From positions 27,032,001-27,096,000 of the forward strand of contig NC_073381.1 of the NCBI RefSeq assembly GCF_028641065.1: 64,000 nt of DNA, given 5' to 3'. Position 1 is the stretch's first letter. Each line of letters begins with the position of its first letter. Below, in pieces: positions 4,836 to 42,435 of the stretch. The notes beneath the pieces are model-generated. The model did no database searches, was not told where the DNA came from, and worked only from the letters and a program-made list of their open reading frames with translations. The stretch comes from Leucoraja erinacea. Lineage: Eukaryota. The translations under genes were made by a program, and so were the position numbers.

Positions 4836-5070
4836 TCATGTTCATAAGTTCATAAATTATAGGAATAGAATTAGGCCATTCGGCCCATCAAGTCTACTCC
4901 TCCATTCAATCATGGCTAATCATTCTTTCCCTCTCAACCCCATTCTCCTGCCTTCTCCCCATAACCACTGACTCCCATACTAATCAAGAATCCACCTTAA
5001 AAATATCAATTGGTCTCCATGGACTTCTGTGGCAATCAATTCCATAGACCACCCTCTGACTAAAGAAATT
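4836..5070 (-). mobile_element. CR1/HER1 LINE 3' end
   Basis: TAGGCCATTCGGCCCATCAAGTCTACTCC...CCTGCCTTCTCCCCATAACC, the reverse complement of the CR1 3' UTR and GYGEKAG terminus. Confidence 0.7.
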
Positions 5071-5516
5071 CTACAATCACCGACAAGCCGAGGATTTTGC
5101 TGCATGTCTCGAATGATGATTTACAGTTCCAGGTGGACTTGGGGCTGCTGTGTCGCTAATGGGTCAGGACACCTGGGAGAGGATCGGATCGCCGAAACTG
5201 AAACCGGCCAACATCCGCCTTTTTGGATACAGACGACAGCCCATTCCCACGAAAGGCAAATGCACTGTCGCCGTTTCCTGTAATGGTATGACACAGATGT
5301 TGCCGTTGATCGTCGTTGGTAGAGAAGGTACATCCCTGTGCGCCATCGATTGGATCCATGCTTTCAAGCTTGACATGAACGATGATGGATGAACTATGGC
5401 ATTGTCAACTACCATGTATTGCAACAAGGTCAGCAAGTGCGAGAACAACCTGCAGACGGTTTTTGACCAGTTTCCGGACGTTTTCGCACCTGGACTCGGG
5501 CATTGCACAAAGATGA

Positions 5517-6314
5517 ATGCATGGCTCATACTCAAAGACGATGTCATCCCTAAGTTCTTCAAACCAAGACCCGTTCAGTTGGATGGACGCCGTCGACAAG
5601 GAACTCTGCCGTCATGAGGAAATGGGAATTATCACCCATGTGGACCATTCAGAATGGGCCACACGCATAGTTGTGGTTCAGAAGCCTTGCAGCAAGTTGC
5701 GCATCTGTGGCGAATACAAAGTGACTATAAACCCTCAATTGCACATTGATCAACACCCCATACCAAAAGTGGACGAGCTGTTCGTCAAGCTGCAAGGAAG
5801 ACAGTACTTCTCGAAATTGGACATGTCTTGCACGTATCTCCAAGTGGAACTGGATGACGAGACAAAAAACTTGCTCGTGATCAACACACACAAGAGACTG
5901 TTCAGATACAACCGATTGTCGTTTGGACCGGCACCGGCCATCTTCCAGAAACTTGTCGACAATCTGGTTTCTGGAATTCCGTACGTAGCCGCCTACCTGG
6001 AGAACATAATTGTCATCGGCCGGACAGAGGAAGAATACCTGCAGAACCTAAAACAGGTCCTCACGGCACTGAACAACTACGGCATGAAGTTGCGCAAGGA
6101 CAAGTGCGCATTCTCCCGACAACAGGTCACATATCTCGGACATATGATCTCGGCAAGTGGTCTGAAGCCATCGGAAGAAAGAGTGGATGCCATTGTGAAA
6201 TTGCCGATGTCTGAAAATGTGAATCAGCGTGAAAGCTTCATTGGCAAGGTGAACCACTATGGCAAGTTCATACCGGCACTTTTGACATTGTGCGCACAAT
6301 TGAACAACCTGTGA
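5517..6314 (+). pseudogene. Gypsy reverse transcriptase, inactive
   Basis: RT motifs present but catalytic YxDD reads YLEN; frameshift upstream and stop at 6312-6314. Confidence 0.85.
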
Positions 6315-6844
6315 AAACAGGATGTCGAATGGCACTGGTCCAAAGAGTGTAACCATGCATTCACAAGATTGAAGGAGATGCTCACCCAGAAGACGCGTTT
6401 GGTCCACTATGACCCATCAAAGCTGATCTCGCTGGCCGCCAATGCATTGCCGTATGGTCTTGGAGCTGTAATCTCACAAACAGCGCCGAATGGACAGGAA
6501 GAATCAATCGCGCTCGCATCCAAAACGCTGACGACCGCCGAGAAAAACTACAGTCAAGTGGAGAAAGAAGCACTGGTGATCGTGTTTGGTGTCCGGAAGT
6601 TCCACCAATATTTGAGTGGGCGACATTTCCTGCTCATCACCGACCACAAGCCGCTGCCGACTATTTTTGGTACGGAGAAAAGTTTGCCTGTCATGACGTT
6701 GCAGCGTCTACAACGTTGGGCCCTGATCATGATGGGATATGATTACCACATCATTTACCGACAGTCTGCCGAGCTTGCCAATGCCGATGCACTGTCTCAT
6801 CTACAGATTGGACCTGACCTGACATTCAATAAAGAGGAGGCAAT

Positions 6845-7146
6845 TCAAACAAGAGGCCATGACTTCAGAATTAAGGGACAGAAGTTTAGGGGTAACATGA
6901 GGGGGAAATTCGTTACTCAAAGAGTGGTAGCGGTGTGGAATGAGCTTCCAGTGGAAGTGGTGGAGGCAGGTTCATTGGTATCATTTAAAAATAAATTGGA
7001 TAGGCATATGGATGAGAAGGGAATGGATGGTTATGGTATGAGTGCAGGCAGGTGGGACTAAGGGAAAAAATGTTGTTCGGCACGGACTTGTAGGGCCGAG
7101 ATGGCCTGTTTCCATGCTGTAATTGTTATATGGTTATATGGTTATA
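6845..7146 (+). mobile_element. CR1 LINE 3' fragment inserted into the Gypsy pol
   Basis: TRGHDFRIKG...FVTQRVVAVWNELP CR1 C-terminus fused in frame to Gypsy RNaseH; (ATGGTTAT)n tail; Gypsy sequence resumes at ~7147. Confidence 0.8.
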
Positions 7147-7860
7147 ATGGAAATTGAGATGGACGTGAACCTGCTCAACACGCGGGTCATCGCCGATTTC
7201 CCCATCTCCGCAAGGACGGTCGCCAACTACACGTGCACAGACCCCATATTGTCGAAGATACAACAATTTGTCACTCAGGGGTGGCCGAACAGTCCTAAGC
7301 GGGACAAGGAATTCCCATTTTCGCAATGCGCGATTTCTTACAGCAATATCGAACCGTTCCAAACTGCACTACCGGTCGAACTCCAGTGGAGTTGATGCTC
7401 GGACGTCAAGTGTGTTCTCCCCTATCAGTTTTGAACCTCTTATACGGTGCGCACTCAGCCAACGAAGTTGAACAAGTCCAAATTCGACATTGGTGACATC
7501 GTATATCGCCGCAATTTTACGGCCAAGAAAAGCAAATAGAGCGCTGGCAGAATCATGGCTCACATTGGAACCAAAATGCATACCGTCCAGGGACAAGAAG
7601 GACAATGCCAATGGCATGATGACCAATTAAGAAGCTGCATTCCTCCAGCGAAGACTGCACAGAACCTGACCAGAACCAAACAGTCGGACACCCCGGTGCC
7701 GAATCGTGTGGATACCGGAGTGTCTAACTTTGACGAAGTTCCACCAGACAAACTCCCCGCCGATCTGCCTGTGCCCTTCGTCGATCGACACGTTGCAATC
7801 GTGCTATTCCCCCAAGGTGACCCCTTCAGGAATAGAGACGTTCAAACTGCAAAGGGGGAG

Positions 7861-8091
7861 TGTGATGTTTGGTGGACTGTGTGCAGTGGGAGGACCCGTT
7901 GCTCCTACCATGCAACAAGTGGTGCTGCACAGGACAAATGGAGATGTTTTGTAAATAGTTTTTCCTGTCTGTAGACATGAGTGTGCAGCCATTTTTGAGT
8001 TGTCTTGCTGCCAGCATTGAGTCATATATAAAAGACTTCTGTTGTACCCTGAAGACTCTCAAGTTTCATGCTGACCTAGAAAAAGAACACA
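7861..8091 (+). repeat. Gypsy 3' LTR
   Basis: Begins TGTG directly after the PPT, contains TATATAAAAG (~8025), probable end ...GAACACA. Confidence 0.6.
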
Positions 8092-8509
8092 AAATTAGTG
8101 GAAACATCCTCTCCACACCTACTCTAGTCTGACTTCTATTGTTCCATTGCACTTTCCTACCTTGTATATTTAACACCTTCCCTCACTTTGTCCTGGTTAA
8201 ATAAAGGTTCATTTGTCTGAAACATTAATTCTTCCACAGTTGCTGGCAGATGCTCTAAGAATTTCCAGCATTTCTATTTTTGTTTCAGATATCCAGCATC
8301 TGATTTTTTTGCATTTAAGTTTTGCTCATTTGCTTTTAAGGCTGTACAACAAATACTTCCCTCATAAAAATAAACCAGCATCGGCAATTCCTTCCTACAC
8401 CCTCCAGAGATAGAGTCTGGCCCACTGAGTTACTCCTGCACTTTGTGTTTTATCATTATTATTGGTAGCCTCCCTGCTCTGTGACTACATAGTAACTACC
8501 AAAAGACAA

Positions 8510-9085
8510 GTTTAGTTTAGTTTAGTTTAATTGAGATATAGCGCAAAAAAAGGCTTTTCGGCCCACCGAGGCCGCAATGACCAACGATTGCCACACTCTA
8601 ACACTGGGGAGAACATACAAATTCCTTACGGATAGCATTTGTAGTCAGGATCATAGAAACATAGAAACATAGAAATTAGGTGCAGGAGTAGGCCATTCGG
8701 CCCTTCGAGCCTGCACCGCCATTCAATATGATCATGGCTGATCATCCAACTCAGTATCCCGTACCTGCATTCTCTCCATACCCCCTGATCCCCTTAGCCA
8801 CAAGGGCCACATCTAACTCCCTCTTAAATATAGCCAATGAACTGGCCTCAACTATCCTCTGTGGCAGAGAGTTCCAGAGAACCTGGGTATCTGGTGTTCT
8901 AAGACAGCAGCTCTCGTTCAAGTTCAAATGAGTTTATTGTCGTGTGTCCCTGTATAGGACAATGAAATTCTTGCTTTGCTTCAGCACACAGAACATAGTA
9001 GGCATTTACTACAAAACAGATAAGTGTGTCCATATACCATAAAATAAATATATACCGCTCTACCGCTGCGCCACTGTGCCACTGC
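8510..9085 (-). mobile_element. V-SINE broken by nested insertions (CR1 3' end 8653-8880; second retro-tail ~8916-9050)
   Basis: SINE tail (TAAAC)n at 8510, SINE body resumes at 8881 and SINE head CTCTACCGCTGCGCCAC at ~9058; CR1 tail (CATAGAAA)n at 8653. Confidence 0.65.
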
Positions 9086-9995
9086 GTAAAAACTGTCAAC
9101 AGCCACTAATACCACTCGTGCAACCAATGGGCTATGTTTACTGGACTCCCTGGACTTCAGATCAGCTCTCCAAATCCCTGCCACGTTACAATTGACAGAG
9201 GTTCAGTGGAGCATATTGGGCTTAATGCAAAGTAATCAAACCGGGCTGAGAATCTAATCTCATGTCATTCCCAGTGGGATAACAACATTTACATTTTAGC
9301 TGAAAATCTTTAAACCATATTTTGATAAGCCTAACTCTTAGCAATGTACTTTAAATAAAAAATGCACTCTCCTTTGAAAACATCCCTGAGAAACAGAAGC
9401 TCAGAAAATCTTGAGGATGTTTTGCACCATTCACCAAACTCAGGTTAAATAAGGACATCTCCTGGAATGAAGGAAGTTCCATAATCCTCACAGCAACAAT
9501 CGTCACTGAGGATGTTGCGTGTCTGAGACTGCATTGCCAGAGCTATTTAGATAGAAAATAAATTATGTCTTACTCAAAAAAACAGTTCTAATTTATGATT
9601 TTACTCTGAAGCAGAAATGTCTTGGTTAAGAAAATGACGAACATAAAAAGTACAGAGGAAAGCCTGAAATTGTTTCTGATGGATGAATTCTGTGGTTTAA
9701 CATTTGCATCAATTTGCTTGGGTGTCTGTGTGTGTGCTGTAAACATGTCTGAGTATTTGTCTATGTGTTTGTATTTGGAGCATCAGAGTGTATGTGTGGG
9801 TGTGTGTAGGAGCCATTCTGTTAGTTAGTATATTATAGTATTTTGTATAGATTGCTCCAGCTGTTTTTTTTTGTAAGTTTGTGGATGAGATTATATACAT
9901 AGATGGGTGTGTCTACATCGGAGGAGGCTAGCGTAGCCACGGAGAGTGGGCTGGTCAGTTTAGCCACAAGGGATGAAGGAGACAGCAGTTTTTAC

Positions 9996-10496
9996 CTCAC
10001 GTCGCCACACGACACGCGGGCTGTGGAGCTTACTCCTGCGTCAGCGCGATCAAGGAACCAATCGAGGTTACTCGCGCTGACACAGTAAGTTACACCGCCC
10101 GCTGTCCTGTTATACATCGCCCACTGACCCACTCTTGAGCTGGTCCCCTCACTGCCAGGTCTACATTGAAAGACACGGACCGGGCAGTGAATGCCATGCA
10201 GTGTCACCCAGTGCAGCTAGTGAGGCCATGTGCTGCCCCTGGCGGCAATTGGAATGTACGGATTTGCATGAAGCGGCTGGCATGAGCGAGGTGTTCAGAT
10301 GGAGAGCACTGCCAGAGGTGAGCGGGCCGGCAGAAAGCGCTGAGGTGGCGGCCGGTTCCGCTGCCCGGACCCTGCGGCCGGTTCCTGCGCAGCAACCCGA
10401 GCCACTTCCCTCCCCGGCCACAATGCGATAGCTCCGCGCCCGGAGCGTCGGAGCAGCTTTACCCCTGGCCAGACTTCCCACACGCTGTGAAAGAAA
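9996..10496 (-). other. CpG-rich putative first exon/5'UTR of an unidentified minus-strand host gene (possible N-terminus MYNRTAGGVTYCVSASNLDWFLDRADAG from ATG 10117)
   Basis: Non-repetitive, GC/CpG-rich; ATG in GCGATG context; candidate donors GGA|GTAAGC (exon end 10034) and GAG|GTAAAA (exon end 9996); peptide not recognised. Confidence 0.3.
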
Positions 10497-10504
10497 CTCT
10501 CCCC

Positions 10505-11194
10505 TTTTTTTTTTTTTTCCATTTTCATATATTTATTCTGATAAATTCAGCGCATTTAACTGTACGAAGTAGGGTCTTCTTCCCAAATGATGGTCGAAAT
10601 GTCTCACGACATACTGCACATCCCAGAGATCAAGCTATTCCAGTGCTTTTATGATTGCTTCATTGGCTTCTACATTAATTAATGCTTCCGCACGTTCCAC
10701 CTCGTCAGTGGCAGTTGAAAGTTCAGCGTTAGCCTTATCCAGGTTGGCCTTTGCAGCAGTGACATCCAAATTGTCCAAGACTGTTGCCTCTTCAGCTAAC
10801 AGCTGAACCGAGGAGTCTGCATTCACTGTCACTGAACCACTGCTCACAAAATATTTAGTCTGACCACCCTCCTCATCAATGACAGTGACAACTCCAGGTT
10901 TTAGCACCTGAAGCGTGGGCACATGAGCTGGTAGAATACCAAAGCTTCCAGTCAGGGTTGGAACATCTACTTGTTTAACACTTGCTTCATTATAGAATAC
11001 CTTGGTCGGAGAAGCAAAGGTGAAGGACATCCTGACGGCGGAGGCCAAAGCCGGTGCCGCCTCGGCATAGCCCCTAGCAAGCACTGCCCGTGCCGAGGGC
11101 AAGGCACCGGGTCGGAGTATGGAGCAGATCCTGGCGGCGAACATGCCCGCAGCTTCCCGTCCGGATCCGGCAGCTCCAGCAAGGACAAGCCGAC
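10505..11194 (-). other. ATP5F1D: Processed (retroposed) ATP5F1D mRNA copy including 5'UTR, 3'UTR and poly(A)
   Basis: No introns; AATAAA (10537-10532) 13 nt before an A14 tail (10518-10505); direct repeat CTCTCCCC at 10497-10504 and 11195-11202 (TSD). Confidence 0.92.
10635..11144 (-). CDS. ATP5F1D: ATP synthase F1 subunit delta, mitochondrial (intact retrocopy, 169 aa)
   Basis: MFAARICSILRPG...ARGYAEAA presequence, then MSFTFASPT...VKQVDVPTLTGSFGILPAHVPTLQVLKPGVVTV...YFVSSGSVTVNADSSVQLLAEEA...EANEAIIKALE; true ATG at 11144; no stops or frameshifts. Confidence 0.95.
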   Translation of the reverse strand: MFAARICSILRPGALPSARAVLARGYAEAAPALASAVRMSFTFASPTKVFYNEASVKQVDVPTLTGSFGILPAHVPTLQVLKPGVVTVIDEEGGQTKYFVSSGSVTVNADSSVQLLAEEATVLDNLDVTAAKANLDKANAELSTATDEVERAEALINVEANEAIIKALE

Positions 11195-11202
11195 CTCTCC
11201 CC

Positions 11203-11650
11203 ACCCACCCCCCAGCGGCGCTGTCCTTTTACAGCTGCTTCCCATCAGCTGCCAACAATGAGGGATAGATTTGGCTATCCCTCAGTACAGCAACAATGAG
11301 AGATAGCCAAGTCTCTTTCTTCGCTAACAACCTAACCTTCGGCCACTAAGATGCAGGTAAATTTTTGCGCCTTATTTCTGGGTAAAAAAAAAACAAAAGA
11401 AATTTATTTACCACATTATTTGTACACGAACTCCATTCTTCTCTCTTTGTTTCTTAAGATACTCTTAGGATAATGACAATCCATGTTTGAAAAACCCGCC
11501 AAGAATCTTGCGTTGTGCATGCGCAGTAGGCTGCTGTGCAGCACATGCACGCAGTCCATGGTGCAAAGGCAGAATTTCAGCTGCCTTCAGCTCCCCTTGT
11601 CATTGAAGGCTTGAAGCAGCATCGACGGCACGCGAGATGTACATACCTTC
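11203..11650 (-). promoter_or_regulatory. Putative promoter region upstream of the retrocopy/host exon
   Basis: Unique sequence contiguous with the CpG-rich segment; two CAACAATG SOX-like sites (11253, 11291); NRF1-like TGTGCATGCGCA (11514-11525, 1 mismatch). Confidence 0.3.
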
Positions 11651-12377
11651 ACGTATTACATGTACTGCGGATGAAAGGAACGGGAGAATTATGCCTACCT
11701 AAGAGATGCCTCCCTTGCCTTTACTATTTATATTTAATAATTACCATTTTATAATTTTAGTCAGGGTAGGCAGTACCTACCTTGCCAACCCTGATGGCAC
11801 GTGCCTGGTGTACGTGTGTTCTGTATGCGTGAGTGAATGTGTGCATGAACTTTAATGAACACATCGCAAAACACTCCCCAGAAGGGGGCCTCTCCCAGTG
11901 ATCCAGCGGCATTCGATATAAACTTCCCACAGAGGCCGGCAATAAATACAGAAGTTGCAGGTGGTGATGGCTCCCCATCTGGTGCCCCTGTGTGTGGGGA
12001 GATCATTGTAAGTCCAAAGATTGTTAGAGCCATTCAGGTAAATATTGAAACTCACACAGGCAATGGTGGCGTACCTCTTATTTATGAGCCTGGTAACTAG
12101 GGTGAAAACTGATGGTGCAGCCAATGGGTTTGCAGCACCCAGTGGTGAAAAGACCACAGAACTATAGTAGAATGAACAAGGATTACTTAAACAATGCAAG
12201 TGTATTACTGATTGACCCGTATTGGGTTTAAGACTCACCCAGGTCATGTGGGAAAGATGGGAACATGACAGTAGAATCTAGTCAAAGGAATTAATTTAAA
12301 TAAAATAAAATAGATATGGAAAAGGAAGGGGAAATGAAAGACGGGAATTTAACAGACTTTCAGCTAACCAGACTTTC

Positions 12378-12654
12378 TGCCTTACAGTGCCAGAGCCCCG
12401 GGTTCGATCCTGACTACAGGTGCTGACTGTGTCTGTTTGTACCCTCTCCCCATGACCTGCGTGGGTTTTCTCCAGGTGCTCAAGTTTCCTCCCACACTCC
12501 AAAGACGTACAAGTTTGTAGTTTAATTGGCTTGGTAAAAATGGCAAATTATTCCTAGTGTGTGTAGGGTAGTGTTAGTGTGCAGGGATCGCTGGTCAGCG
12601 CGGACTCGGTGGGCCCAAAGGCCTGTTTCCGCTCTGTATCTCCAAACTAAACTA
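12378..12654 (+). mobile_element. V-SINE (HE1-like)
   Basis: GGGTTCGATCC B-box, V-domain, GGCCTGTTTCC...(TAAAC)n tail. Confidence 0.75.
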
Positions 12655-13054
12655 AAAGGAGCACAGCACAGGAAGAGGAAAGAGAATAATGTGAATGGAA
12701 ATCGAGCCTGTTTCCATGTTGTGTGATTCTATGACTCTAAATGAGTAAGATCTTTGGAAAGGGGGTGTACACACCCAGCACAAGGCTGCCGAGAAGTCAC
12801 AAACAATGTTCTCTACTTTAACTGCAATTAACATGGAAGTCTTGACCAGACTACAAAACAGTAGATGCTTTGCACAGGGTCTAAAACTGGCATTAAGCCA
12901 TTGTTTGGCACACAAAAAATGCCAAACAGGTTCCATCTTAGTTTTGTGGAGATTAGACTAATTATCCAGTCTTATCATTTATCTTATCTTAGGCCTCTGT
13001 CTCAAATTACTCTTTATCCATTTCTTCACATATAACAAAAAAAAAGTTGGATTT

Positions 13055-13305
13055 GTTTAATTTAGAGGTACAGTATTGAAACAGGCCCTTTGGCCTACGT
13101 TGGACTACGCTGATCAATGATCACCCGTACACTAGTTCTATGCTACACACTTGGGACAATTTACAGAAACCAGTTAACTGACAAACTTGTACATCTTTGG
13201 AATATGTGAAGAAACCGGAGCACTGCAGAAAACCTACGCAATCGCTGGGAGAACGTACAAACTCCGTCCAGACAACACCTGGCGCTGTAAGGCAGCAACT
13301 CTACT
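13055..13305 (-). mobile_element. V-SINE (HE1-like), degenerate
   Basis: Reverse complement of the same SINE consensus (GAAACAGGCCCT...GAGAACGTACAAACTCCGT...GGCAGCAACTCTAC). Confidence 0.65.
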
Positions 13306-13754
13306 GCTATTAGTTCTATTAATAAAGACTGGACATCCCAAAGCTATTTCACTACTCCTCTGCCAATCTTCAAGGAGTGGCAAAAAAAACTGAAATGTGA
13401 CACAAAATAATATACATTATGAGGCCAAAGCAGAACAACAAATATTTTGATGCATTTTAGCCTTCAGTATTCAATCGATCAACAATCCGTTCAAACAGTT
13501 ATTTTCTTAAGCACAACACAGTCCTAAGCTGGGACTAGTCAGTAACTCAATTTTTGCACAACACAGCTAATATTGTTGTTGGGTGACAAACTACGGAAAA
13601 TGTTTATCACACCTCATAAAAAACCAATGCTGACATTTTGGCAACAATATTTTGTGCAAAGTAATTTCAGCATCATGACACAAAAGTGACAAGTCTGTAC
13701 TAAAATAGGGAATGGGAAATTACCTGTGATACATTGTCCCTCATTGCTTCTCCA

Positions 13755-14855
13755 TTGCAGCAGCGTTCATCTCCCGGGGAGGTAGTTGGGGGGCGTCTCC
13801 TCGTGGTGGATGTAATGTACCGGGGCTCTCCGCTCCGGCTGAATAATGTGTACACCTCACCCGTGCAGATCAAGACGATCCGACAGTGCCGACACAGACT
13901 GGACAGCACCTCCAAGCTCCTGCTGGAGATGGTAAAAGACGCAAAGCTGTGCAACTCCTTCAGCGACCCTGCAGGCGGGTCCCAGTCGCGGTTCACCTGG
14001 TCGAGATCGAACGGTTCAGTCCGGTCCCGGATAGATTTCCTCTTCACGTCGAAGGCCATCATGGTCAGACACACCTACCTCACACCTACCGGTGTTCTTC
14101 TCTGACCACACCTCAAAATGCCTCATTGTCAAAACTTACCAACAAGCACCAAGACCTGGCTAGGCTGGCAGTGAGGGGAGCCCTCCCAGTCTGATCCTTC
14201 CTGCACCGTGGAACCTCATTACCAGCGCACGCTGCCCTCGGGACGGCTGCTATGGAGAGGAGACGGTTGCCCACCTCTTTGCAGAGTGTGGATTCGCAAA
14301 GAGAGTCTGGAGAGGTCTGTAAGGGTCCCTGTCACGGTTTATTCTGAACAGCTCCGTCACAGAGGACTCTGTGATTTACAGACTGTTCCCAGGAACGCAT
14401 TCAGAGACTGACCGAGTGCTGCTGGAAGGTCATCAACTCGGTGAAAGACGCTCTTTGGTCTGCCCAAGCACCACCCAGCAGAGCGAGATGTCCGTCAGGG
14501 AATGTTGCCGACTGGCCCGCTGCAGACTGCAGGAGTACGTGCTGAGGGATGCACTGAAGCTCGGTGCAGCCAACGCCAAGGCTTGATGGGGGAGGAACAC
14601 AGTTTAGGTTCCTTCCACTGCTGGACATGGGGGGCAGGGTGTGGTGGAGACACCCCTCAAAATAAGAAAGGGATTCCCTCCGGTGGGCCACATGAGTGAC
14701 AAGGGTGGAGGGTAAATTTGTGAAATTTGAGCAATGTAGGTAGACTGTATTGCGTATTTTGTATGGCCTCCGAAAATGTCGTATGAATTTTTTGCACGGT
14801 TCACGTATTCGTATATATTTATTACCTAAATAAAGTCTATTTTGAATTTTTTTTT
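13755..14855 (+). mobile_element. Internally deleted Tx1-clade LINE (EN fragments joined to C-terminal zinc-finger region and 3'UTR)
   Basis: EVVGGRLLVVDVMYRGSPLRLNNVY and SRIDFLF (endonuclease); LTNKHQDLARLAVRGALPV...CPRDGCYGEETVAHLFAEC; RCRLQEYVLRDALKLG; AATAAA at ~14828; RT absent. A second 3' end follows at ~14870-15145. Confidence 0.7.
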
Positions 14856-15442: not shown

Positions 15443-17346
15443 TAAAATTTATGTTTGGGAAAAAAAGAAGAGCGGCACAAAGTTGCATTTGAAAACCAGG
15501 CAGAATGTTTACTGAGAGAGTTTATGTACAGGATGTGCAACCTTCAAGGGAAATCAGTGTCAATCATCAACTCTGATTACATTAACAAAACATAGAATTT
15601 CACTGCAAGATATCTTCATCGTGGGGTCCAATAAGAGATTCAATGTGGTGCAGTTTTACTCAGGTCTACTGATTGAACATTATATTTCTGTAGCTTTAAC
15701 ACTTTCATAAAATAAAACGAGCCCAATGTCATCAGCATCAGTACAAATTCATTTGAGCCTCTGATGAGAAAGCAGGATGAAATGCAATTATTCAAACACA
15801 AATTTAATTTAAGCAAAAGGGAAATAAATAGCCTCAAACACAAAGCAGTGTGTTGTGCGTATTCCATGTGGAGCCCATCGGTCAGCAAAGGCCAGAGCCT
15901 TTAAAACAGGTAATAATGAGTCGAAGTAAAAGCAATACTTCAGCTTAAACAAGCATTCCACTGCGAGTCTGCATACACTCAGCAACATACGTGACAGATT
16001 TAAAGCTACATTTAATCCCGTTTCAGTTAAAGTGTTTCACAAAGCTCTGAGCACCATTAAAATTTCATACCACAGTCCCTCTGACCATGAGATCTGAGTT
16101 TATAAATGTGGACTCCCTTGGTAGGGTCCCCTGCCCCGCTGGGAATTCATGTTCATTAAAAAAAAAAAAACCCTCTGATGTCCCTTTTGAGATAGAAAAC
16201 AAGGGGACAGCAACAAAATGATTATTTGGATTACTGTGAACTAAGAAAAATCAGTAACTCTTTTTCAGCGTGCATCTCCCTGGTAAGCTGTAATGTTCAT
16301 GCAGTCTTTAGTAATAGACACTGATGAGCTATCTAGAGTGAATTCTGCAACCTCACACAGCCGGGGGGGAAACAACATTCAAAGTAAATGTGCATATTCA
16401 GGCTTACTGTGTTAATCCTGGCTAAATTGGACCAGCTAGAACTTCAAAATGGGGTTAAGTTTCAGGGTTGCTGGGAGATTTGGTCAAATTGGAATTACTC
16501 TCTGCAGAGCTGGGACAGGCTGCGAAGAGGTGGCAGAATGTCTGGAGCTTAGATACAATTTGCAAACAAAGAATGGGAAGATCTGCAAACCCTGTCAATC
16601 TGGTGCAAAATGCATAGAATGGATTGGATGGCTGTTGCAGTCTGACTTTGCCAAGTGTTGATTGGATGAGGTGATGAGCCTTGTCTGGGTTTTCTGTTAA
16701 TCAGGGTAAATGTTTCCAAGTTGACTTCATCTAGAAGTCCATTGTGAACTATTGTGGTGAACATCCCACAAGCCGATAGTGTTACAAAATATTTAAAAAC
16801 AAATTCTGCCATTGATTTTATTGGTGATTTCTGGGCTAGGAAGAACAACCATTTCAGATAACCTATCTCAATTTTTTGTTTATAGTGGTGCCAAAGTTTG
16901 TGGTTCTTTGTAACTGCATAACAATATAGAAGTGTGAAAACGCACACCTCCAGATTCAGGGACAGTTTCTTCCCAGCTGTTAACAGGCAACTGAATCATC
17001 TTACCACAACCAAAGTTCATAGAGCGGAGCAAGGTAGACCACTCCTGCAAAATCCAATAGACTGACATGTAGTGCGCAATGGAGGAGAATGTCCGCCATT
17101 TTGGGAAACCCGACCCAACTTCCGTTATGCCTCTCGCAGTGTAATCAGCATTTTGGGGGAACAGTATGTGTGTGTGATATAGCTCATCTACCAAATTTTG
17201 TTGATTTTCTTTTAAAATGTTTTCCTCCCTGCTTAATTCATCTGTTTCTGCTTATTTCCCTCCCATCCTTCCTCCCCATCCCCCTCTTTTTCTGCAGTTT
17301 CCCTTGTATTGCTATAACCTACACTATGCACAAATATAACTGCTGG

Positions 17347-17806
17347 AGTCTGTGAATGTCCGTAAGTGGCCCGGCCAGAGTCCGGACTTGAACCCGATCA
17401 AACATCTCTGGAGGGATCTGAAAATAGCTGTGCATCGACACTCCCCATCCAACCTGACAGAGCTTGAGAGGATCTGCAGAGAAGGATGGGATAAATTACC
17501 CAAATACAGGTGTGCCAAGTTTGTAGCATGATACCCAAGAAGACTTGAGGTTGTAATCACTGCCAAAGGTGCCTCAATAAAGTACTGAGTAAAGGGTCTG
17601 AATACTTATGTAAATGTGATATTTCAGTTATTTATTTTTAATTATTTTGCAAAAATTTCTAAACATCTGTTTTCACTTTTTTATTGTGGGCTATTGTGTG
17701 TAGATTGCTGATAAAAAAAAATGAATTTAATCCATTTTAGAATAAGGCTGTAACGTAACTAAATGTGGAAAAAGTGAAGGAGTCTGAATACTTTCTGAAT
17801 GCACTG
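17347..17806 (+). mobile_element. Tc1/mariner transposon 3' fragment
   Basis: WPGQSPDLNPIKHLWRDLKIAVHRHSPSNLTELERIC...AKGASIKY* transposase C-terminus; right TIR ends CACTG followed by TA. Confidence 0.85.
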
Positions 17807-17968: not shown

Positions 17969-18201
17969 NNNNNNNNNNNNNNNNNNNNNNNNNNNNNNNN
18001 NNNNNNNNNNNNNNNNNNNNNNNNNNNNNNNNNNNNNNNNNNNNNNNNNNNNNNNNNNNNNNNNNNNNNNNNNNNNNNNNNNNNNNNNNNNNNNNNNNNN
18101 NNNNNNNNNNNNNNNNNNNNNNNNNNNNNNNNNNNNNNNNNNNNNNNNNNNNNNNNNNNNNNNNNNNNNNNNNNNNNNNNNNNNNNNNNNNNNNNNNNNN
18201 N
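17969..18201. other. Assembly gap (233 N)
   Basis: Run of N. Confidence 1.
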
Positions 18202-19604
18202 GTGAATAAAATATCAATGAACACATGCCAAGATATCTTTTCATTCTTTCATTCTATATTAGTGTAATAAAATGTAGTGTATACATACACACCTACACTG
18301 ATGCAGAAGTGTGAGCTTCGGACATGAATAATGTACATTGCTACCATAGTTTAGTATTTAATTTAACATATATTTGAGGGGGTTGGTCCAATATAATGCT
18401 AACCCTCACTTTGTAACACTGATGGAGCGATTTTTGGACCCTACCTGTTTCCACGGGAACCTACCTCAAAACACCAATTTAACCTGATGGCGATCTCATG
18501 TGAACAACCACGCAGCCAGTCTTTAGGCAATAGGTCACGTTGCGATATTTAAAATGGAAATTGTTGCTTCTGATTTTTGCATGTTATAATCTAGAAATAC
18601 AGTGCGAACTACTTTGTGGACAAATGGCATGAAATCACGGGCTCTGACAATGGACGGGCTATAAGCAACATATGGCTGTTACTGATATTTTAGTGACTAT
18701 GAAAATATAAGACAAAAAAATATAAAACACAAAAAGCTGGAGTAACTCAGCGGGACAGGCAGCATCTCTGGAGAGAAGGAAGGGGTGATGTTTCAGTTTG
18801 AGACCCTTCTTCAGCTTCAAATGAATCCTTCTTGGTCCAGTAGGTGAAATTACTCCATCTGATGCATTTGCAGGAATCTTCAAGTTGCTGCTTTTTATTT
18901 TATTTTACAGAATGGGAACTGGACATTTTTTGATATTTTATGACTAAATAGCAAAAAATGTCTGATAGTTTGTGTAATATTCCAAGTTTTCCAAAATTAG
19001 TGTAAAACTAGCGATAATCACTGGGCTACAGTGCATGGAGTTAAATCAGAAACGGTAACTTAAAGAAGCAACTTATCAAATAAGGTGTCGGCTAGTACAT
19101 TGTTGCCTGTACTAAAGCCACATCTGAATATTACTATCTTAAAAAAAACCTACAGACTAAATTTTATCATTTTAGTGCCTCAGCCCCACATTAAATGAAG
19201 ATTGATAACGAAGTTATCTATTGATATCACAATTTCTGACATGGAGTCATAGCACGCATTTAAATTATAATTTATACCTAATACTTTAAAATACAACTTT
19301 TTCAAAGACGCAACAGTAATCAAATTGATCCTGAAGTTATTTCACAAAAATTGAGCCACTAATTTCTAGATCATAACAGTGACAATCATTTCTATATTAT
19401 AATTCACACAGTGCGTGCATTTTTCACTGCAATGCCATTCAAAAAAGTTTGCACAATGAATTAAATTAATTGCATGTTCCAAACTTGGGAGAAATTACTT
19501 CTTTGGAGATAACGCGGTGAGTGCATGGACTTAGGAATGTTGTTGTTATGGTGCAAGTGACTCAAATCGCGTAATCGTGGCTGCAGACTAATGGGGCCCC
19601 CATT

Positions 19605-20225
19605 ACATAGAAACATAGAAAATAGGTGCAGGAGTAAGCCATTCGGCCCTTCGAACCTGCACCGCCATTCAATTTGATCATGGCTGATCATTCAACTCAG
19701 TATCCTGTACCTGCCTTCTCTCCATACCCCCTGATCCCTTTAGCCACAAGGGCCACATCTAACTCCCTCTTAAATATAGCCAATGAACTGGCCTCAACTA
19801 CCTTCTGCGGGAGAGAATTCCAGAGATTCACCACTCTCTGTGTGAAAAAAGTTTTCCTCATCTCGGTCCTAAAAGATGTCCCCCTTATCCTTAAACTGTG
19901 ACCCCTTGTTCTGGACTTCCCCAACATCGGGAACAATCTTCCTGCATCTAGCCTGTCCAACCCCTTAAGAATTTTGTAAGTTTCTGTAAGACCCCCCCTC
20001 AATCTTCTAAATTCTAGCGAGTACAAACCGAGTCTATCCAGTCTTTCTTCATATGAAAGTCCTGACATCCCAGGAATCAGTCTGGTGAACCTTCTCTGTA
20101 CTTCCTCTATGGCAAGAATGTCTTTCCTCAGATTATGAGACCAAAACTGTACGCAATACTCCAGGTGTGGTCTCACCAAGACAACTGCAGTAGAACCTCC
20201 CTGCTTCTATACTCAAATCCTTTTG
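19605..20225 (-). mobile_element. CR1/HER1 LINE 3' fragment
   Basis: ORF 19697-20179 VRPHLEYCVQFW...GYGEKAGTGY; (CATAGAAA)n tail. Confidence 0.85.
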
Positions 20226-22494: not shown

Positions 22495-25400
22495 TACGGA
22501 CAGGGGTTTCTGCGGCAACAGACGGGATGCGAGGATGGTGTGCTGCCTTCCCGGTGCCAGGATCCAGGATGTCACGGACGGAGTGCAGAAAATCCTCAAG
22601 GGCGAAGGTGAACATCCGGAAGTGGTAGTGCATGTCGGCACAACATGTCGGAAAGAAGGGGATGAATATTCTGCAGCGTGACGGCGGTTTGACATGTTGG
22701 CAGGCAACGCAATGTCGGAAAGAAGGGGATGAATATTTCAGTTGCATGCGTGGATCTTAGAGAGAGGTTAACAGAAGGTAATGTTGTAATGGTGGTGACG
22801 CAAAGGTCCAAAATAAGTGCGAGGTTAGGGTCGTGGGGGAGAAGTGGCAAGGATGCTCCAGGGGTTATTTCCGGATAATGCTTCCAGGTTTCCCAGCAAT
22901 GCAGTGGTGGAAGCTGGCAGATAGTAACAGTTATCTGGGGCGGGACCAGGGTTTGGCAGGCAGGTTTTGCAACTTCTACACGGGTGGCTTTAAACTGAAT
23001 AAGGGAGGTAGGGTGTCGAATGGGATAGTGGAGGATGGAGTTAAAGGGAAAGGGTTTCTTAAATGTGTGAGCGTAGAGACCGAGGGGTGTAAAATGAGGG
23101 TAGAAGCAATAGGTAGCAAGGTGAAAAGTAAAAGTGGCAGGCAGACAAAACCCGGGCAAAGATCAAAAGGAGCCACTTTTCAACATAATTGTATAAGGGG
23201 TAAGAGTGTTGTAAAAACAAGCCTGAAGGCTTTGTGTCTCAATGCAGGAGCATTCGTAATAAGGTGGATGAGTTGAATGTGCAGATAGCTATTAATGACT
23301 ATGATATAGTTGGGATCACGGAGACATGGCTCCAGGGTGACCGAGGCTGGGAGCTGAACATCCAGGGATATTCAATATTCAGGAGGGATAGAGAGAAAGG
23401 AAAAGGAGGTGGGGTAGCGTTACCGATTAGAGAGGAGATTAATGCAATGGAAAGGAAGGATATTAGTTTGGAGGATGTGGAATCGGTATGGGTAGAGCTG
23501 CGAAACACTAAGGGCCAGAAAACGCTGGTGGGTGTTGTGTACTGGCCACCTAACAGTAGTAGTGAAGTTGGAGATGGTATCAAACAGGAAATTAGAAATG
23601 CGTGCGACAAAGGCAAATTGGCAGGGGTGCCGAGGAAGAGGATTTCTTGGAATGTATGCGGGATAGTTATCTAAATCAACATGTAGAGGAACCAACGAGA
23701 GAGCAGGCTATTTTAGACTGGGTATTGAGTAATGAGGAAGGGTTAGTTAGCAATCTTGTTGTACGTGCCCCCTTGGGCAAGAGTGACCATAATATGGTTG
23801 AGTTCTTCATTAGGATGGAGAGAGTGACATTGTTAATTCAGAAACAATGGTTTTGAACTTAAAGAAAGGTAATTTTGAAGGTATGAGACGTGAATTGGCC
23901 AAGATTGACTGGCAATTAATTCTAAAAGGGTTGACGGTGGATATGCAATGGAAGACATTTAAAGACTGCATGGATGAACTACAAAAATTAATCAGGGAAG
24001 GTAGTACATCCGTGGATAACAAGGGAAATCAGGGATAGTATCAAAGCGAAGGATGATGCGTACAAATTAGCCAGAAAAAGCAGCATACCGGAGGACTGGG
24101 AGAAATTCAGAGACCAGCAGAGGAGGACAAAGGGCTTAATTAGGAAAGGAAAAATAGATTATGAAAGAAAACTGGCAGGGAACATAAAAACTAACTGCAA
24201 AAGTTTTTATAGATATGTGAAAAGAAAGAGATTAGTTAAAACAAAGGTAGGTCCCTTGCAGTCAGAAACAGGTGAGTTGATCATGGGGAACAAGGATATG
24301 GCGGACCAATTGAATAACTATTTTGGTTCCGTCTTCACTAAGGAAGACATAAATAATTTGCCAGAAATAGCAGGGGACCGCGGGTCAAAGGAGTTGGAGG
24401 AATTGCGTGAAATCCAGGTTAGCCGGGAAGTGATGTTGGGTAAATTGAATGGATTAAAGGCCGATAAATCCCCAGGGCCAGATAGGCTGCATCCCAGAGT
24501 ACTTAAGGAAGTAGCTCCAGAAATAGTGGATGCATTAGTAATAATCTTTCAAAACTCTTTAGATTCTGGAGTAGTTCCTGAGGATTGGCGGGTAGCAAAT
24601 GTAACCCCACTTTTTAAGAAGGGAGGGAGAGAGAAAACGGGGAATTACAGACCAGTTAGTCTAACATCGGTAGTGGGGAAACTGCTAGAGTCGGTTATTA
24701 AAGATGGGATAGCAGCACATTTGGAAAGTGGTGAAATCATTGGACAAAGTCAGCATGGATTTACGAAAGGTAAATCATGTCTGACAAATCTTATAGAATT
24801 TTTCGAGGATGTAACTAGTAGCGTGGATCGGGGAGAACCAGTGGATGTGGTGTATCTGGACTTCCAGAAGGCTTTCGACAAGGTCCCACATAAGAGATTA
24901 GTATACAAACTTAAAGTACACAGCATTGGGGGTTCAGTATTGACGTGGATAGAGAACTGGTTGGCAAACAGGAAGCAAAGAGTAGGAGTAAACGGGTCCT
25001 TTTCACAATGGCAGGCAGTGACTAGTGGGGTACCGCAAGGTTCAGTGCTGGGACCCCAGCTATTTACAATATATATTAATGATCTGGATGAGGGAATTGA
25101 AGGCAATATCTCCAAGTTTGCGGATTACACTAAGCTGGGGGGCAGTGTTAGCTGTGAGAAGGATGCTAGGAGACTGCAGGGTGACTTGGATAGGCTGGGT
25201 GAGTGGACAAATGTTTGGCAGATGCAGTATAATGTGGATAAATGTGAGGTTATCCATTTTGGTGGCAAAAACAGGAAAGCAGACTATTATCTAAATGGTG
25301 GCCGACTAGGAAAAGGGGAGATGCAGCGAGACCTGGGTGTCATGGTACACCAGTCATTGAAAGTAGGCATGCAGGTGCAGCAGGCAGTGAAGAAAGCGAA

Positions 25401-26058
25401 TGGTATGTTAGCTTTCATAGCAAAAGGATTTGAGTATAGGAGCAGGGAGGTTCTACTGCAGTTGTACAGGGTCTTGGTGAGACCACACCTGGAGTATTGC
25501 GTACAGTTTTGGTCTCCAAATCTGAGGAAGAACATTATTGCCATCGAGGGAGTGCAGAGAAGGTTCACCAGACTGATTCCTGGGATGTCAGGACTGTCTT
25601 ATGAAGAAAGACTGGATAGACTTGGTTTATACTCTCTACAATTTTGGAGATTGAGAGGGGATCTTATAGAAACTTACAAAATTCTTCAGGGGTTGGACAG
25701 GCTAGATGCAGGAAGATTGCTCCCGATGTTGGGGAAGTCCAGGACAAGGGGTCACAGCTTAAGGATAAGGGGGAAATCCTTTAAAACCGAGATGAGGAGA
25801 ACTTTTTTCACACAGAGAGTGGTGAATATCTGGAACTCTCTGCCGCAGAGGGTAGTCGAGGCCAGTTCATTGGCTATATTTAAGAGGGAGTTAGATGTGG
25901 CCCTTGTGGCTAAGGGGATCAGAGGGTATGGAGAGAAGGCAGGTACGGGATACTCAGTTGGATGATCAGCCATGATCATATTGAATGGCGGTGCACGCTC
26001 GAAGGGCCGAATGGCGTACTCCTGCACCTAGTTTCTATGTTTCTATGTTTCTATGTTT
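22495..26058 (+). mobile_element. CR1/HER1 LINE, 5'-truncated (ORF1 esterase remnant, ORF2 APE+RT, (TTTCTATG)n tail)
   Basis: RMVCCLPGARIQDV...VVVHVGT (SGNH-type ORF1); LCLNA-SIRNK, GITETW, GKSDHN (APE, frameshifted); RT ORF 24217-25965. Confidence 0.9.
24217..25965 (+). pseudogene. CR1 ORF2 reverse transcriptase region, probably inactive
   Basis: NYRPVSLTS, YLDFQKAFDKV, GVPQGSVLGP; catalytic FADD reads FADY here (FADD in the copy at 53569-54147). Confidence 0.85.
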
Positions 26059-26369
26059 ATGAGCCTTTATCAGGAATATTTTGAAATGGGTCGATCTAAA
26101 AATAAGTGAGGTTACGTAAATGTTGATCAGAATTCTGGCTATGTCATTCTTGGATTATAATGTACAGTTCCAGTGTGTCTATCGGAGCAAGGGGAGAATG
26201 AGGTGTTAGTATGATTCCTATTTGAACAAGATTAGTTTGTGCAGAGGCAGCATTGCTGCAGATAAGAAAACCAGGCTTTATATGCCGCAAAGATGGTAAA
26301 TGTCTAAAATATATATACTTGAATTGGAATAGGCATCCATTTCCCAAGCCTCCAATACCCTGATCACGT

Positions 26370-28459: not shown

Positions 28460-28552
28460 CCCCCCCCCCCCCCCCCCCCACCCCCCCCCCCCCCCCCATC
28501 ACCCCCCCCCCCCCCCCCCCCCCCCCCCCACCCCCCCCCTCCCCACCCCCCC
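28460..28552. repeat. Interrupted poly(C) tract
   Basis: ~90 nt almost pure C. Confidence 0.9.
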
Positions 28553-29450: not shown

Positions 29451-30024
29451 TATATCTTAGATACCTTGCAGTCTGATTCTAGCGCTGGGTCGTTAATGTT
29501 GATTGGTAAATAATTGTTGGTCATGGGTCTGATCCTTGGGACACCCCACGGTCACATCATTTATTCCAGCTCTCTGTCTCCTCTGTGATTACCAAATCTG
29601 CACCATATTTCTTGGCACAATCAGAAAAACATTCTTTGGCAACATGTTTACAATCTCCTGAGAACGAGGAGAACAAGAGATATTTTCAAAGAGGAAACCT
29701 TTTAAGGAGCAGATAAAATATGGAAAGCAACACTTAACACACAAGAAGTGAGCGAGTTGAATTCCTATCTGGGCAAATATACATTCATATACTACTCGCT
29801 TTGCATTCAACCTTGAAACTGTACTGAAGGTGAATTGAATGTTAATAAATGCCTTTGCTTCCTGTTGCAACGTACAGAGACAGAATGTGGGGGACATTGT
29901 TTGGAGGAAGGGCAGCAGCAGAACAGGCAAGGTTATTCATCCCAGCTGCTCACTCCAGGTTTAGCTCAAGGGAGGAAGAAAGAAACATTCCTCAAGATTT
30001 AGTCTGCAGCTTCTGAAAAAGAAC

Positions 30025-30095
30025 CCCCCACCCCCCCCCCCCCCCCCCCCCCCCCCCCCACCCACCCCCCCCCCCCCCCCCCTCCCCCACCCCCC

Positions 30096-30137
<42 letters not shown>
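30025..30137. repeat. Interrupted poly(C) tract
   Basis: ~110 nt almost pure C. Confidence 0.9.
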
Positions 30138-32130: not shown

Positions 32131-33555
32131 TCTTACTCACAGTCCTCCTCTGCTGAGCAGGCCCCAAGGATTTTTCCTATTGAAATAAAAAAATTATGAG
32201 CGTTTAAAAAACCTTGAGATCCTCTCGCCTGTCAATCACCGCGATGTTGGTAACACCCTTACCGGGGGGAGGGGGGCAGGACTATAAAAACCAGGATGCC
32301 TGGATGCAATGCAGTCACTCTGCAAGATCGCAAGGGAGAGGCCATGACTCACATTCTAAGCTGTGAATTAACTGAACTGTGAGCCTGCAATGTACTTGCA
32401 ATAAATGATTTGGTAGCCCTTAATGAAAATGAAATTAGTTATTTGGCCTGCCCTGTGCTTGAAACTGCAATGGCAATGGAAATGAAATGAAAATGCAATG
32501 ATCTGTTTGGCCTGCCCTGTGCTTGAAACTTCAATGGCAATGGAAATGAAATGAAAAGGCAATGAGTGGTTTGGCCTGCCCTGTGCTTGAAACGGCAATG
32601 GCAATGGAAATCAAATGAAAATGCAATTAGTTGTTTGGCCTGCCCTATGCTTGAAACTGCAATGGCAATGGAAATGAAATAAAAATGCAATGAGCTGTTT
32701 GGCCTGCCCTGTGCTTGAAACTGCAATGGAAATAGAAACTAAATGAAAAGGCAATGAGCTGTTTGGCCTGCCCTGTGCTTGAAATTGGAATGGGAATGAA
32801 ATGAAATTAGTTGTTTGGCCTGCCTAAAACCACGGATGTTAGCCCACAAGGCCCCTATTAGCCGGGAAACCAGTCCCTTTTGCCCAAAATGCCCATATAA
32901 ACCCAGGAGGAGCATTTTGGCCCAAAAGGCCCGTGCTATGCCAAGGAAATGTCCAGAAAAAGTGCCTTTCACTGAGATTTAACTAGTTTTTTTTTATTTG
33001 TAAGTGTCCCTTCGGCCCATCAGGCCTGTCCTAGCCCAGGAGGAGTCCCTTCACCCCATCAGTAAGTACTCCCCTTGCAAGTATTAAACCTCACCTCAGC
33101 ATTTTTCTCCCTCCCTTCATTGGCTCCTTGTGAGATCCAGGCCAGGATAGACTTTCTTCCTTCATTGCTGTGATCTGCAGAAAAAGATGAAAAATGTCTA
33201 AAATTGATTCTCCACCCTCTCCCCCTTCTCTCTCACAGAGTCTCTCGCCTGTTTTGGACAGAATTTCTGGCAGTTTCTGAGCTGCCAGCCCACCAGGCCT
33301 GAGTGACTGAGCTGCCAGCCCACCAGGCCTTAGTGACTGAGCTGCCAGCCCAAGAATCCATTTGGTGCACAATGTCCATACTAGCCCTCTGGAAACCAGT
33401 CCCTTCTGACCACAACACCCATACTAGCGCTCCAGAACCTCCCCCCCTCCCCGACTGGCCACCAATATTGGAATTGGTTAGAGAGGTGGAATATTTTGTT
33501 GGGGGACCAGCCCTCCCATGTGAACATGGGACCCAACTGGTCCCACTTAGTCTAG
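32131..33555 (+). mobile_element. Non-autonomous Helitron-like element with internal minisatellite
   Basis: 3' hairpin GGGACC-CAACT-GGTCCC then ACTTAGTCTAG|T; 5' boundary uncertain (A|TC at 32131). Confidence 0.55.
32440..32825. repeat. ~60-bp minisatellite, ~6.5 units
   Basis: TTTGGCCTGCCCTGTGCTTGAAACTGCAATGGCAATGGAAATGAAATGAAAATGCAATGA repeated. Confidence 0.9.
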
Positions 33556-35805: not shown

Positions 35806-36371
35806 CAAAGCACTATCAAAGGTTTATGTTTAGGTTTAGGTTTATAATTGTCGTATGTACTGAGGTACAGTGAAAAACTTTGCATGCAATCCAATCAAAG
35901 CAAATAATACTGTACATAAACATAATTAAGTCAAATTCAACTATAATAGTTAGCGAGAATGGATAGGTACAGGATGCAGAATTTAGTTTCCAGCATTGCA
36001 GCGCACCAGTTCCTGAGACAAAGTCCACTGTCTGCAGCAGGGTAGACGGGAATCCGACAGTACCTTATTTTATGGAAAGAAGTTTTCAGATTTTCTATCC
36101 TTTATGTGGAGATAGGTACATAACGCTTGGGCAGCTTACATCATTACATTGGTATTTAACTTCATTTTTTTTTTTTTTTGAAAATATTTTTTATTGGAGA
36201 TAGGTACATAACCTATTACATCATTACAGTCTTACATTTTTAAATTGATAATATTGTCAGTTATTATTACATTGTCTCCAATACCTTTTGCCTTTTTCTT
36301 CCTTTTTTTTTTAAACTAGATAGAACTAAAGAGATAGATGAGGTAAAGAAAGAAAAGAAAGAGAAGAAAAA

Positions 36372-36406
<35 letters not shown>

Positions 36407-36516
36407 AAAAAGATAGTTAAAGAAGAATGGAAAAATTTATTAAAATAAAAAACATCGTTCGAGATATGTTCGTACATTTCAGAGTATAGCATTTCATCCA
36501 TTCTTTAGCCCGAGTG

Positions 36517-39500: not shown

Positions 39501-40236
39501 GAATCTGTTTAATAATATATTCCTGGCATGATCTTTCGTTCAAAATTTGTGGGTTAAATCTCCAATATGCTTGTTTCTCGGACATTCCATTTAATTTAAT
39601 CATGAATGTTACAGGTGCGTGATCTGAGATTATAATGTTATGGTATTTTGAATTATAAATAAATGGGATAAACGTAGAGTCAACTAAAAAATAATCTATT
39701 CTTGAGTATGTTTTGTGTACTGGTGAGTAAAATGAATATTCCCGTCCAGTTGGGTTTTCTATTCTCCAGACATCCTTAATATTAGTGGTATTAATAAATG
39801 AATTTAAAAATACACTTGATTGAGATTTTGCTTTTTTTTGCCTTGATGATCTATCTAAGTATGAATCTAATGTACAATTGAAGTCTCCTCCAATTATTAA
39901 TTTATATTGTGTAAATTCAGGAATTTTATTAAATGTTTTATTAAAAAACGTGGGGTTATCAAAATTAGGCCCATAAACATTAAGAAGGATCACTTTTTCT
40001 CCATTTAACTCTCCAACTAATATAATATATCTACCATCAATATCCACTATTGTTGAAGAGTTCGTAAAAGGTATTCCTTTACGAATTACTATTGCAACTC
40101 CTCTGGACTTGTGGGAAAAGGAGGAATGATATGATTCAGCGATCCACTTAGCTTTAAGTCTATGTTGAGATTCCTTTTTAAGGTGTGTTTCTTGAAGAAA
40201 TATTATATCTGTTTTGATTAAATTTAGATGTGCCAA
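36517..40236 (-). CDS. L1 ORF2p (APE endonuclease, RT, Cys-rich domain); native N-terminus disrupted
   Basis: FLQETH, GGDFN, SRIDYF, SDH; RQGCPLSP, YADD; CDKC...HMFANC; upstream SWNVKGIN cut off by TGA at 40248-40246. Confidence 0.9.
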   Translation of the reverse strand: MAHLNLIKTDIIFLQETHLKKESQHRLKAKWIAESYHSSFSHKSRGVAIVIRKGIPFTNSSTIVDIDGRYIILVGELNGEKVILLNVYGPNFDNPTFFNKTFNKIPEFTQYKLIIGGDFNCTLDSYLDRSSRQKKAKSQSSVFLNSFINTTNIKDVWRIENPTGREYSFYSPVHKTYSRIDYFLVDSTFIPFIYNSKYHNIIISDHAPVTFMIKLNGMSEKQAYWRFNPQILNERSCQEYIIKQIQIFFEVNDNPDTPTSLMWETFKAYVRGTLISAQAFYNKENRIKQQTLESEIKQLDIENARMPSTLKHNKIAVLKYKLNKMYSEQVIKLYQKTKQLHFEFGDKPQKLLARQLRKMEGEKIIHKIRTETGELLKMPKDINDRFLQYYHNLYSTKTVAQSEGIADFLIKCNLKGLDSNDRELLEREITIKDIEESIGSLKNGKAVGPDGLGSEFYKKIYDLLCPRLQRLYEYIYTQQKLPDTLNESIITLIPKADKDPEDPGSYRAIALLNTDQKILTKILAHRLSTVMNKLIHPDQTGFIQKRYSYYNLRRLFNIIYSKRIINEDLAIISLDAEKAFDQVEWPYLFSVMEKMQLGEKFCTWIKLLYTNPTARIFTNQRLSSKFSLSRGCRQGCPLSPLLFALAIEPLAERVRGHPEIHGYNTKDTVNKISLYADDVLIYITKPEISIPNLLKLITQFGSLSGYRINWNKSEIMPIREHNKQIIQQFPFKIVNEKFKYLGIYVTKIYTSLFKANFPPLLNKLHKNIQYWKTLPISMVGKTNAIKMIFLPQILYLFQTIPIYLAKNFKKKLDSIVNDFIWDYKNHRINKRHLCKSKINGGLVLPNFLFYFWAVNIKNMNFWLEEIDHQPDWLKMEKEDCLPFDIGSILFATSKLNKKIYRENPIIFSAIRIWKQLKKTLKLDNLSLFLPIVNNPLFKPSWLDGGFTQWKNYGIKNMGQLYKEGTFLTFQELQQTYGLRGNDYFRYLQLRDYVKSNSQNFRIRNSEILDECWNKHPNTEKLISYIYNILLDSDIPSTDLHRQTWEKELNQVITKDTWEESLQHIHQCSLNARHSLIQFKVIHRLHYSKTKLHKIFQHISPICDKCQHLEATLSHMFANCIKIKKFWVNIFSIISKVTNTQLDPDPKLIILGILELNQTFRITQRNFIDYSLITGKKLILKFWKGPTAPTIKMWIIEMTETLNVERIRFSLLDKQELFVGTWSPFIDYLKGQNSSAQEPD

Positions 40237-42264: not shown

Positions 42265-42311
42265 ACGGGGGGGGTACGTTGTAGCGACATACCATAAAGT
42301 CGCGCACCTGA

Positions 42312-42319
42312 TGACGTCA
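42312..42319. promoter_or_regulatory. Palindromic CRE (TGACGTCA) in L1 5'UTR
   Basis: Exact CRE consensus ~20 nt upstream of the probable ORF1 ATG within the CpG-rich 5'UTR. Confidence 0.4.
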
Positions 42320-42435
42320 CGCAGGCAGCCGTTCAGATCGCGATCGTTGCAGGTAAGACCCGATTTTCTCCCGTTTTTAGATTCTTCGGCACGGAGCTAG
42401 TTGGCGCTGGACTCAAGCCTCCATAGCGCCACCGT

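Follow-up and report, generated by a model that had tools for sequence, protein, structure and literature searches.

Positions 10497-11202 of the 64,000-nucleotide stretch of Leucoraja erinacea DNA analysed here (the window) hold an intact reading frame for the ATP synthase F1 delta subunit, ATP5F1D, which raises the question of whether a skate lineage has acquired a second gene for this subunit or one more processed pseudogene. An earlier note had read the segment as a very young retrocopy, inserted into the CpG-rich promoter or first exon of a same-strand host gene whose promoter could transcribe it. With a probability of about 0.77, it is instead considered to be an ordinary processed ATP5F1D pseudogene inside a high-copy CpG-rich repeat, likely made by LINE-type target-primed reverse transcription, likely silent, and with a reading frame that is intact by chance.

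The insert lies on the minus strand. In its own direction it consists of an incomplete stretch (50 nt, 11145-11194) of the parent's 5' leader, an intronless ATP5F1D reading frame of 169 amino acids plus stop (10635-11144; protein P0121, already annotated in NCBI), a 3' UTR (10519-10634) with an AATAAA signal at 10532-10537, and the remnant of a poly(A) tail, an uninterrupted A14 that appears as T14 on the plus strand (10505-10518). The octamer CTCTCCCC, as written on the plus strand, stands at 10497-10504 beside the 3' end of the insert and at 11195-11202 beside its 5' end, forming a perfect 8-bp target-site duplication that abuts the tail on one side and the end of the likeness to mRNA on the other. 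Reading frame, signal, tail and duplication had all been named in the earlier note and were each confirmed. The frame corresponds over its whole length to ATP synthase F1 delta (Pfam PF02823 and PF21335; PDB match with E 2e-58). The octamer or its complement occurs 6 times in the 64-kb window, and a matching 8-mer pair at a spacing of about 700 nt arose by chance, with generous slack, in 0.6% of 200,000 random placements.

Comparison with other skate sequences relied on read sets, 24 of which were listed for the locus, the best containing 0.64 of 74 sequence words. Four were placed on 9100-12350 at 85% likeness: DNA contigs of skate A (X1), contigs guessed to be RNA from skate A, tissue not recorded (X8), contigs of skate D whose kind is unrecorded and which behave as DNA (X10), and raw poly(A) RNA of skate D, about 6% of the run having been read (X23). 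The placements reported are the best-supported ones; beyond them lie 199 difference entries, 78 joints, 914 loose ends and 10,677 pieces. In unique flanking DNA, mismatches to the window number 1 in 819 and 0 in 534 letters for X1, which makes skate A the species of the window or one very close to it; for X10 they number 23 in 953 (with 12 further gap letters) and 11 in 568, or 2.2%.

The processed nature of the copy, as the earlier note had it, is borne out by these sets. An mRNA contig of skate A (X8 record 20) is colinear with the window over 10532-11194, with 14 differences and no gaps in 663 letters, and a genomic contig of skate D (X10 record 10, 953 nt) aligns over 10998-11194 only and is unlike the window on both sides, where it likely holds upstream DNA of the parent and intron 1. 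The colinear mRNA and the restricted genomic match together indicate that introns of the parent are absent from the copy. The mRNA contig stops matching exactly at 11194, at a loose end, and since it then runs 18 nt into a different 5' leader, the likeness to mRNA ends precisely at the duplication. In-frame reading upstream of the copy follows the parent's annotated N-terminal extension, again only as far as the duplication, whose boundary is thereby fixed independently by the protein match and by the end of the mRNA contig. The 5' UTR ascribed to the copy is accordingly present as 50 nt of parent leader, but it is incomplete, the mRNA contig extending at least 18 nt beyond the copy.

The closest named proteins are rajid skate orthologues, P0001 of Amblyraja radiata (97% protein identity) and P0122 of L. 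erinacea (98%), and the residues of the copy form a mosaic of the two. The window's protein is annotated on a 100.5-Mb sequence, and the main genes P0001 and P0122 on sequences of 34.7 and 31.1 Mb. The skate main genes are modelled at 195 amino acids with an upstream ATG that the copy does not have. The DNA contigs of skate A contain at least one processed copy besides the window's, represented by X1 record 3, a second intronless copy with 8 differences in 172 letters. Proteins annotated as 'ATP synthase delta-like' lie on sequences other than that of the main gene in L. erinacea (P0002, 169 amino acids, 94% identical to the window's protein) and in Scyliorhinus canicula (P0016 and P0019). Taking proteins and gene structures as annotated, ATP5F1D may have been retrocopied repeatedly in elasmobranchs.

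The surroundings of the insert proved different from what had been proposed. The retrocopy breaks a high-copy repeat into a left part at 9925-10496, whose left end is approximate (9920-9970), and a right part at 11203-11807, with depths of 8,000-73,000 and 18,000-103,000 against 20-30 in unique DNA. Across 11 flank bins (9972-10516 and 11171-11824), summed depth is 8,042-98,975 in X1 and 10,509-102,938 in X10, that is 319- to 4,876-fold the neighbouring unique DNA in both of the two DNA runs; summed contig depth is no copy number, but the contrast between repeat and unique DNA is nonetheless beyond doubt. It follows from the depth in both runs that the two flanks are one interrupted repeat and not a unique promoter or first exon, and the claim that both flanks are unique is contradicted. 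They had seemed unique because a blast of 8001-14000 against the window gave no repeat between 9086 and 12369, a picture that read depth reversed. The unique X1 contig on the left ends at 9918; behind 11807, loose ends of 45 and 32 contigs show low agreement (0.39 and 0.41), as expected of many different neighbours. Members of the repeat family carry internal deletions (10152-10292, 11528-11562 and 11540-11652). Both ends of the repeat are found at the same locus in skate D (X10 records 9 and 16), which appears to be without the copy, so that the repeat would be older than its insert. The copy is in sum a genuine, well-preserved ATP5F1D retrocopy with an intact reading frame, lying in a high-copy repeat.

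The nature of this repeat was considered further. A non-autonomous DNA transposon was tried and set aside, since neither convincing terminal inverted repeats nor a 7-8 bp duplication of the repeat's own was found. An Rfam scan of 8000-14000 gave no matches, and a 19-nt end motif had three exact matches in metagenome contigs, none extending beyond 20 nt, which is attributed to chance. The flanks are CpG-rich as the earlier note had described them (observed/expected 0.76 on the left, 0.60 on the right), but ratios at least as high (0.83-1.19) are found in other repeats of the window. One of these, a decayed LTR-retrotransposon pol fragment at 5000-7600 (plus strand; reverse transcriptase match E 7e-17), has a ratio of 0.83. 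Elsewhere the window contains a Tc1-like DDE transposase fragment (PF13358) at 17340-17730 on the plus strand, adjoining an assembly gap at 17969-18201; two long stretches rich in C, separated by about 1.5 kb (28460-28552 and 30022-30137); a 64-nt tandem array (32358-32865); 300-nt direct duplications (46832/47331 and 52381/52689); and a perfect inverted repeat of 77 bp around a single-nucleotide loop, built of a SINE-like unit (62009-62163).

As to mechanism, a skate ATP5F1D mRNA was likely reverse-transcribed by LINE-type target-primed reverse transcription and would have been inserted into the pre-existing repeat, possibly by an L1-like enzyme, leaving a copy presumably without a promoter or selected function of its own. 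A near full-length L1-like element with AATAAA and an A15 tail lies at 36165-42430 on the minus strand; it has a 378-aa upstream frame with no Pfam match and a 1242-codon open frame that encodes endonuclease and reverse transcriptase and lies behind a stop in the N-terminal part, and a target duplication for it was not found. Its endonuclease and reverse transcriptase indicate that such machinery has existed in this genome. Young LINE copies, 93-98% alike and in inverted orientation, which we take to be of CR1/L2 type, occur at 22500-26060 (plus strand, with a 657-aa reverse transcriptase frame at 23992-25965), 52900-55300 (minus) and 19600-20200 (minus). The mammalian L1 target site is TTTT/AA, whereas the pyrimidine run at the copy's target is of C and not T. 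The enzyme is therefore not pinned to L1, the C/G-rich target setting this copy apart from LINE-1 retrocopies made at T/A-rich sites, from which it also differs in lying within a high-copy repeat and in having amino-acid changes that are unusually orthologue-like.

According to PMC5470649, LINE target-primed reverse transcription is recognised by a poly(A) tail, a target duplication and a shortened 5' end. With LINE-1-mediated processed pseudogenes, as portrayed there and in a preprint on cartilaginous fishes (bioRxiv 10.64898/2026.06.26.734816), the copy shares the absence of introns, a poly(A) remnant, a duplication and a short 5' leader, and with housekeeping-mRNA retrocopies as treated in both sources it shares a highly expressed parent and a lineage-restricted occurrence. 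The preprint counts 14,081 retrocopies in cartilaginous fishes, 95.7% of them species-specific and 15.7% with an intact reading frame, formed with a bias to housekeeping genes. A literature search listed no paper on this copy, which the retrocopy tables in the supplements of that preprint may list.

The age of the insert was estimated from its divergence. The alignment to parental mRNA that had been suggested as a check shows 14 differences from skate A mRNA in 663 letters (2.1%), far more than the 1 in 1,353 that separates the X1 flanks from those of the window (Fisher P=2e-6) and resembling the A-D flank distance of 2.2%. With skate D mRNA as outgroup, 13 listed of the 14 differences divide into 11 on the copy side (2 in the 3' UTR, 5 non-synonymous and 4 synonymous) and 2 on the skate A parent. 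The copy-side rate of 11/663 is not different from half the A-D flank distance (P=0.31), from which the insert would be about as old as the A-D split or derived from an already divergent allele. The description of the copy as very young is thus not sustained: its divergence is like that of two species, and a perfect 8-bp duplication with A14 would survive 1.7-2.1% divergence with a probability of 0.5-0.6, counting substitutions alone. In X1 the exon-1 contig has its start exactly at 11194; judged from the behaviour of assembly graphs, this points to a second path upstream, such as a copy with this junction in skate A would create. In X10 the exon-1 contig runs unbroken through 11194 and depth over the insert is single-copy (1-28), so that skate D, the one other species compared, is likely without the copy.

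These dates leave some room for an insertion that predates the split from skate D and has stayed polymorphic or was unevenly sorted or introgressed, the copy keeping an ancestral parent allele; we hold this to be possible, at odds well short of even. Such a history is suggested by N52, found in Rhinoraja and 9 more orthologues where both named rajid parents have K, and by the mRNAs of skates A and D agreeing against the copy at 11 sites, the copy and skate D agreeing against A at only 2 listed sites. Depth offers a further hint: a contig with the window's letter at 10773 is 14.3 deep against 20-25 for single-copy DNA and 29-34 for X1 exon contigs, which hints at heterozygosity in one individual. 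However, the counts are tiny, contig depth is flat and collapsed bubbles hide zygosity, and several other processed copies add depth. An older insertion alters the age of the copy and not its likely lack of function, and it overlaps the explanation preferred here, an ordinary processed pseudogene.

It is considered improbable that the copy is a working retrogene, one that draws on promoter activity in the CpG-rich repeat at 11203-11807 for its transcription and that purifying selection has maintained in a single skate lineage to encode a second F1 delta subunit. The reading frame has stayed intact through about 11 copy-side changes, the protein is annotated by NCBI, and copy-side dN/dS is 0.44 (5 non-synonymous, 4 synonymous changes), but this ratio is not different from neutral (P=0.18), and the frame would survive 9 random substitutions with a probability of 0.71, which falls to 0.29 on the assumption of one indel for every ten substitutions. 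More suggestive are the copy-side residues S17, L33, N52, V85 and D124, each of which is also carried by one or more of 17 chondrichthyan main-gene orthologues; if the copy were a retrogene, such tolerated changes would mark selection. Orthologue-like residues make up 13-16% of possible non-synonymous changes, which gives five of five a post hoc P of about 1e-4, and 3 of 5 remain orthologue-like without the two nearest skates (P=0.03, likewise post hoc). Random decay alone does not predict this pattern; an old template allele or selection fits it. At 10878, 10892, 10956 and 10989 the window's letters seem to recur in further processed copies of X1, collapsed contigs making this uncertain, and ancestral states of the parent are therefore a simpler reading than selection. 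The orthologue-like residues would then mostly be states of the parent allele that was copied.

Expression points weakly the same way. Mammalian retrocopies often recruit nearby CpG-rich proto-promoters, according to PMC4772013, and the repeat family is present in RNA on both strands, but RNA over the flanks has the letters of the family majority and not those of the locus (all reads differ, for example, at 10063, 10090 and 10114). With the promoter-recruiting functional retrogenes described there (PMC4772013) the copy shares an intact reading frame beside CpG-rich DNA; it differs from them in that this DNA is a repeat and not the island of a gene, in showing no significant constraint, and in being apparently absent from skate D. 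The RNA check of the insert junctions that had been proposed could be made in X8, where the best 8 of 10 records placed on the region include no copy-type or junction contig, the one contig among them over the insert being of the parent type, with the 14 differences and the run into the parent 5' leader; it is a weak test, X8 being one assembled library guessed to be RNA whose contigs drop rare variants. Reads of X23 over the insert are nearly all of one strand, and at nearly every listed site their letters depart from the window's (for example 62/62 at 10773, 31/32 at 10892). Since they are parent mRNA from a species likely without the copy, they provide no test of its expression. The processed pseudogene is likely silent and without a promoter of its own.

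It is harder still to believe that a freshly inserted copy occupies a unique promoter or first exon, where it would be transcribed with a same-strand host gene and truncate the transcript of that gene. Besides the GC- and CpG-rich flanks, support for this view consists of donor-like motifs seen by eye near 9996 (minus strand) and 11355 (plus), but no spliced joint to unique DNA occurs among the 15 listed (78 further). Among 355 non-repeat frames of 40 or more amino acids, five retroelement or insert regions having been excluded beforehand, the 290 longest were compared with Pfam and revealed no cellular family and no cellular exon, although short or non-coding exons can be missed in this way. 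Matches were restricted to 3 of the 290 frames (zf-RVT, DDE_3 and PF09004), all in transposon-like pieces. We take PF09004 to occur also in LINE C-termini. Neither of the two RNA runs shows any RNA over the adjacent unique DNA (9318-9862 and 11825-12350). In X23, 6-8 RNA reads of one orientation with 2-3 start places fall on unique DNA at 9100-9287; they are possibly an intronic signal of a distant gene, and with them a long transcript with introns across the region stays conceivable. With flanks that are a high-copy repeat in both DNA runs, no host exon, no locus-specific RNA and 2.1% divergence, neither the host-gene setting nor the transcription from, and truncation of, a host gene envisaged in the earlier note finds support. 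An assembly artefact joining an mRNA-like piece into the repeat, for which speak the low word content of even the best read set and the lack of a listed contig across the whole locus, is the least credible reading of all, given 14 differences from mRNA, an X1 exon-1 contig starting exactly at 11194 where that of X10 runs through, and a tail and paired duplication that misassembly would not be expected to produce.

As a processed pseudogene the copy carries little weight by itself, thousands having been catalogued in cartilaginous fishes and its protein being already annotated. It also serves as a caution that GC-rich flanks, even if seemingly unique inside a window, can belong to high-copy repeats. 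For skates it provides a clean case of retroposition of the poly(A) and duplication type and a possible marker of species or population. Should transcription and selection be demonstrated after all, the copy would count as a new OXPHOS gene driven by a repeat, in a lineage that evolves slowly and has few described retrogenes.
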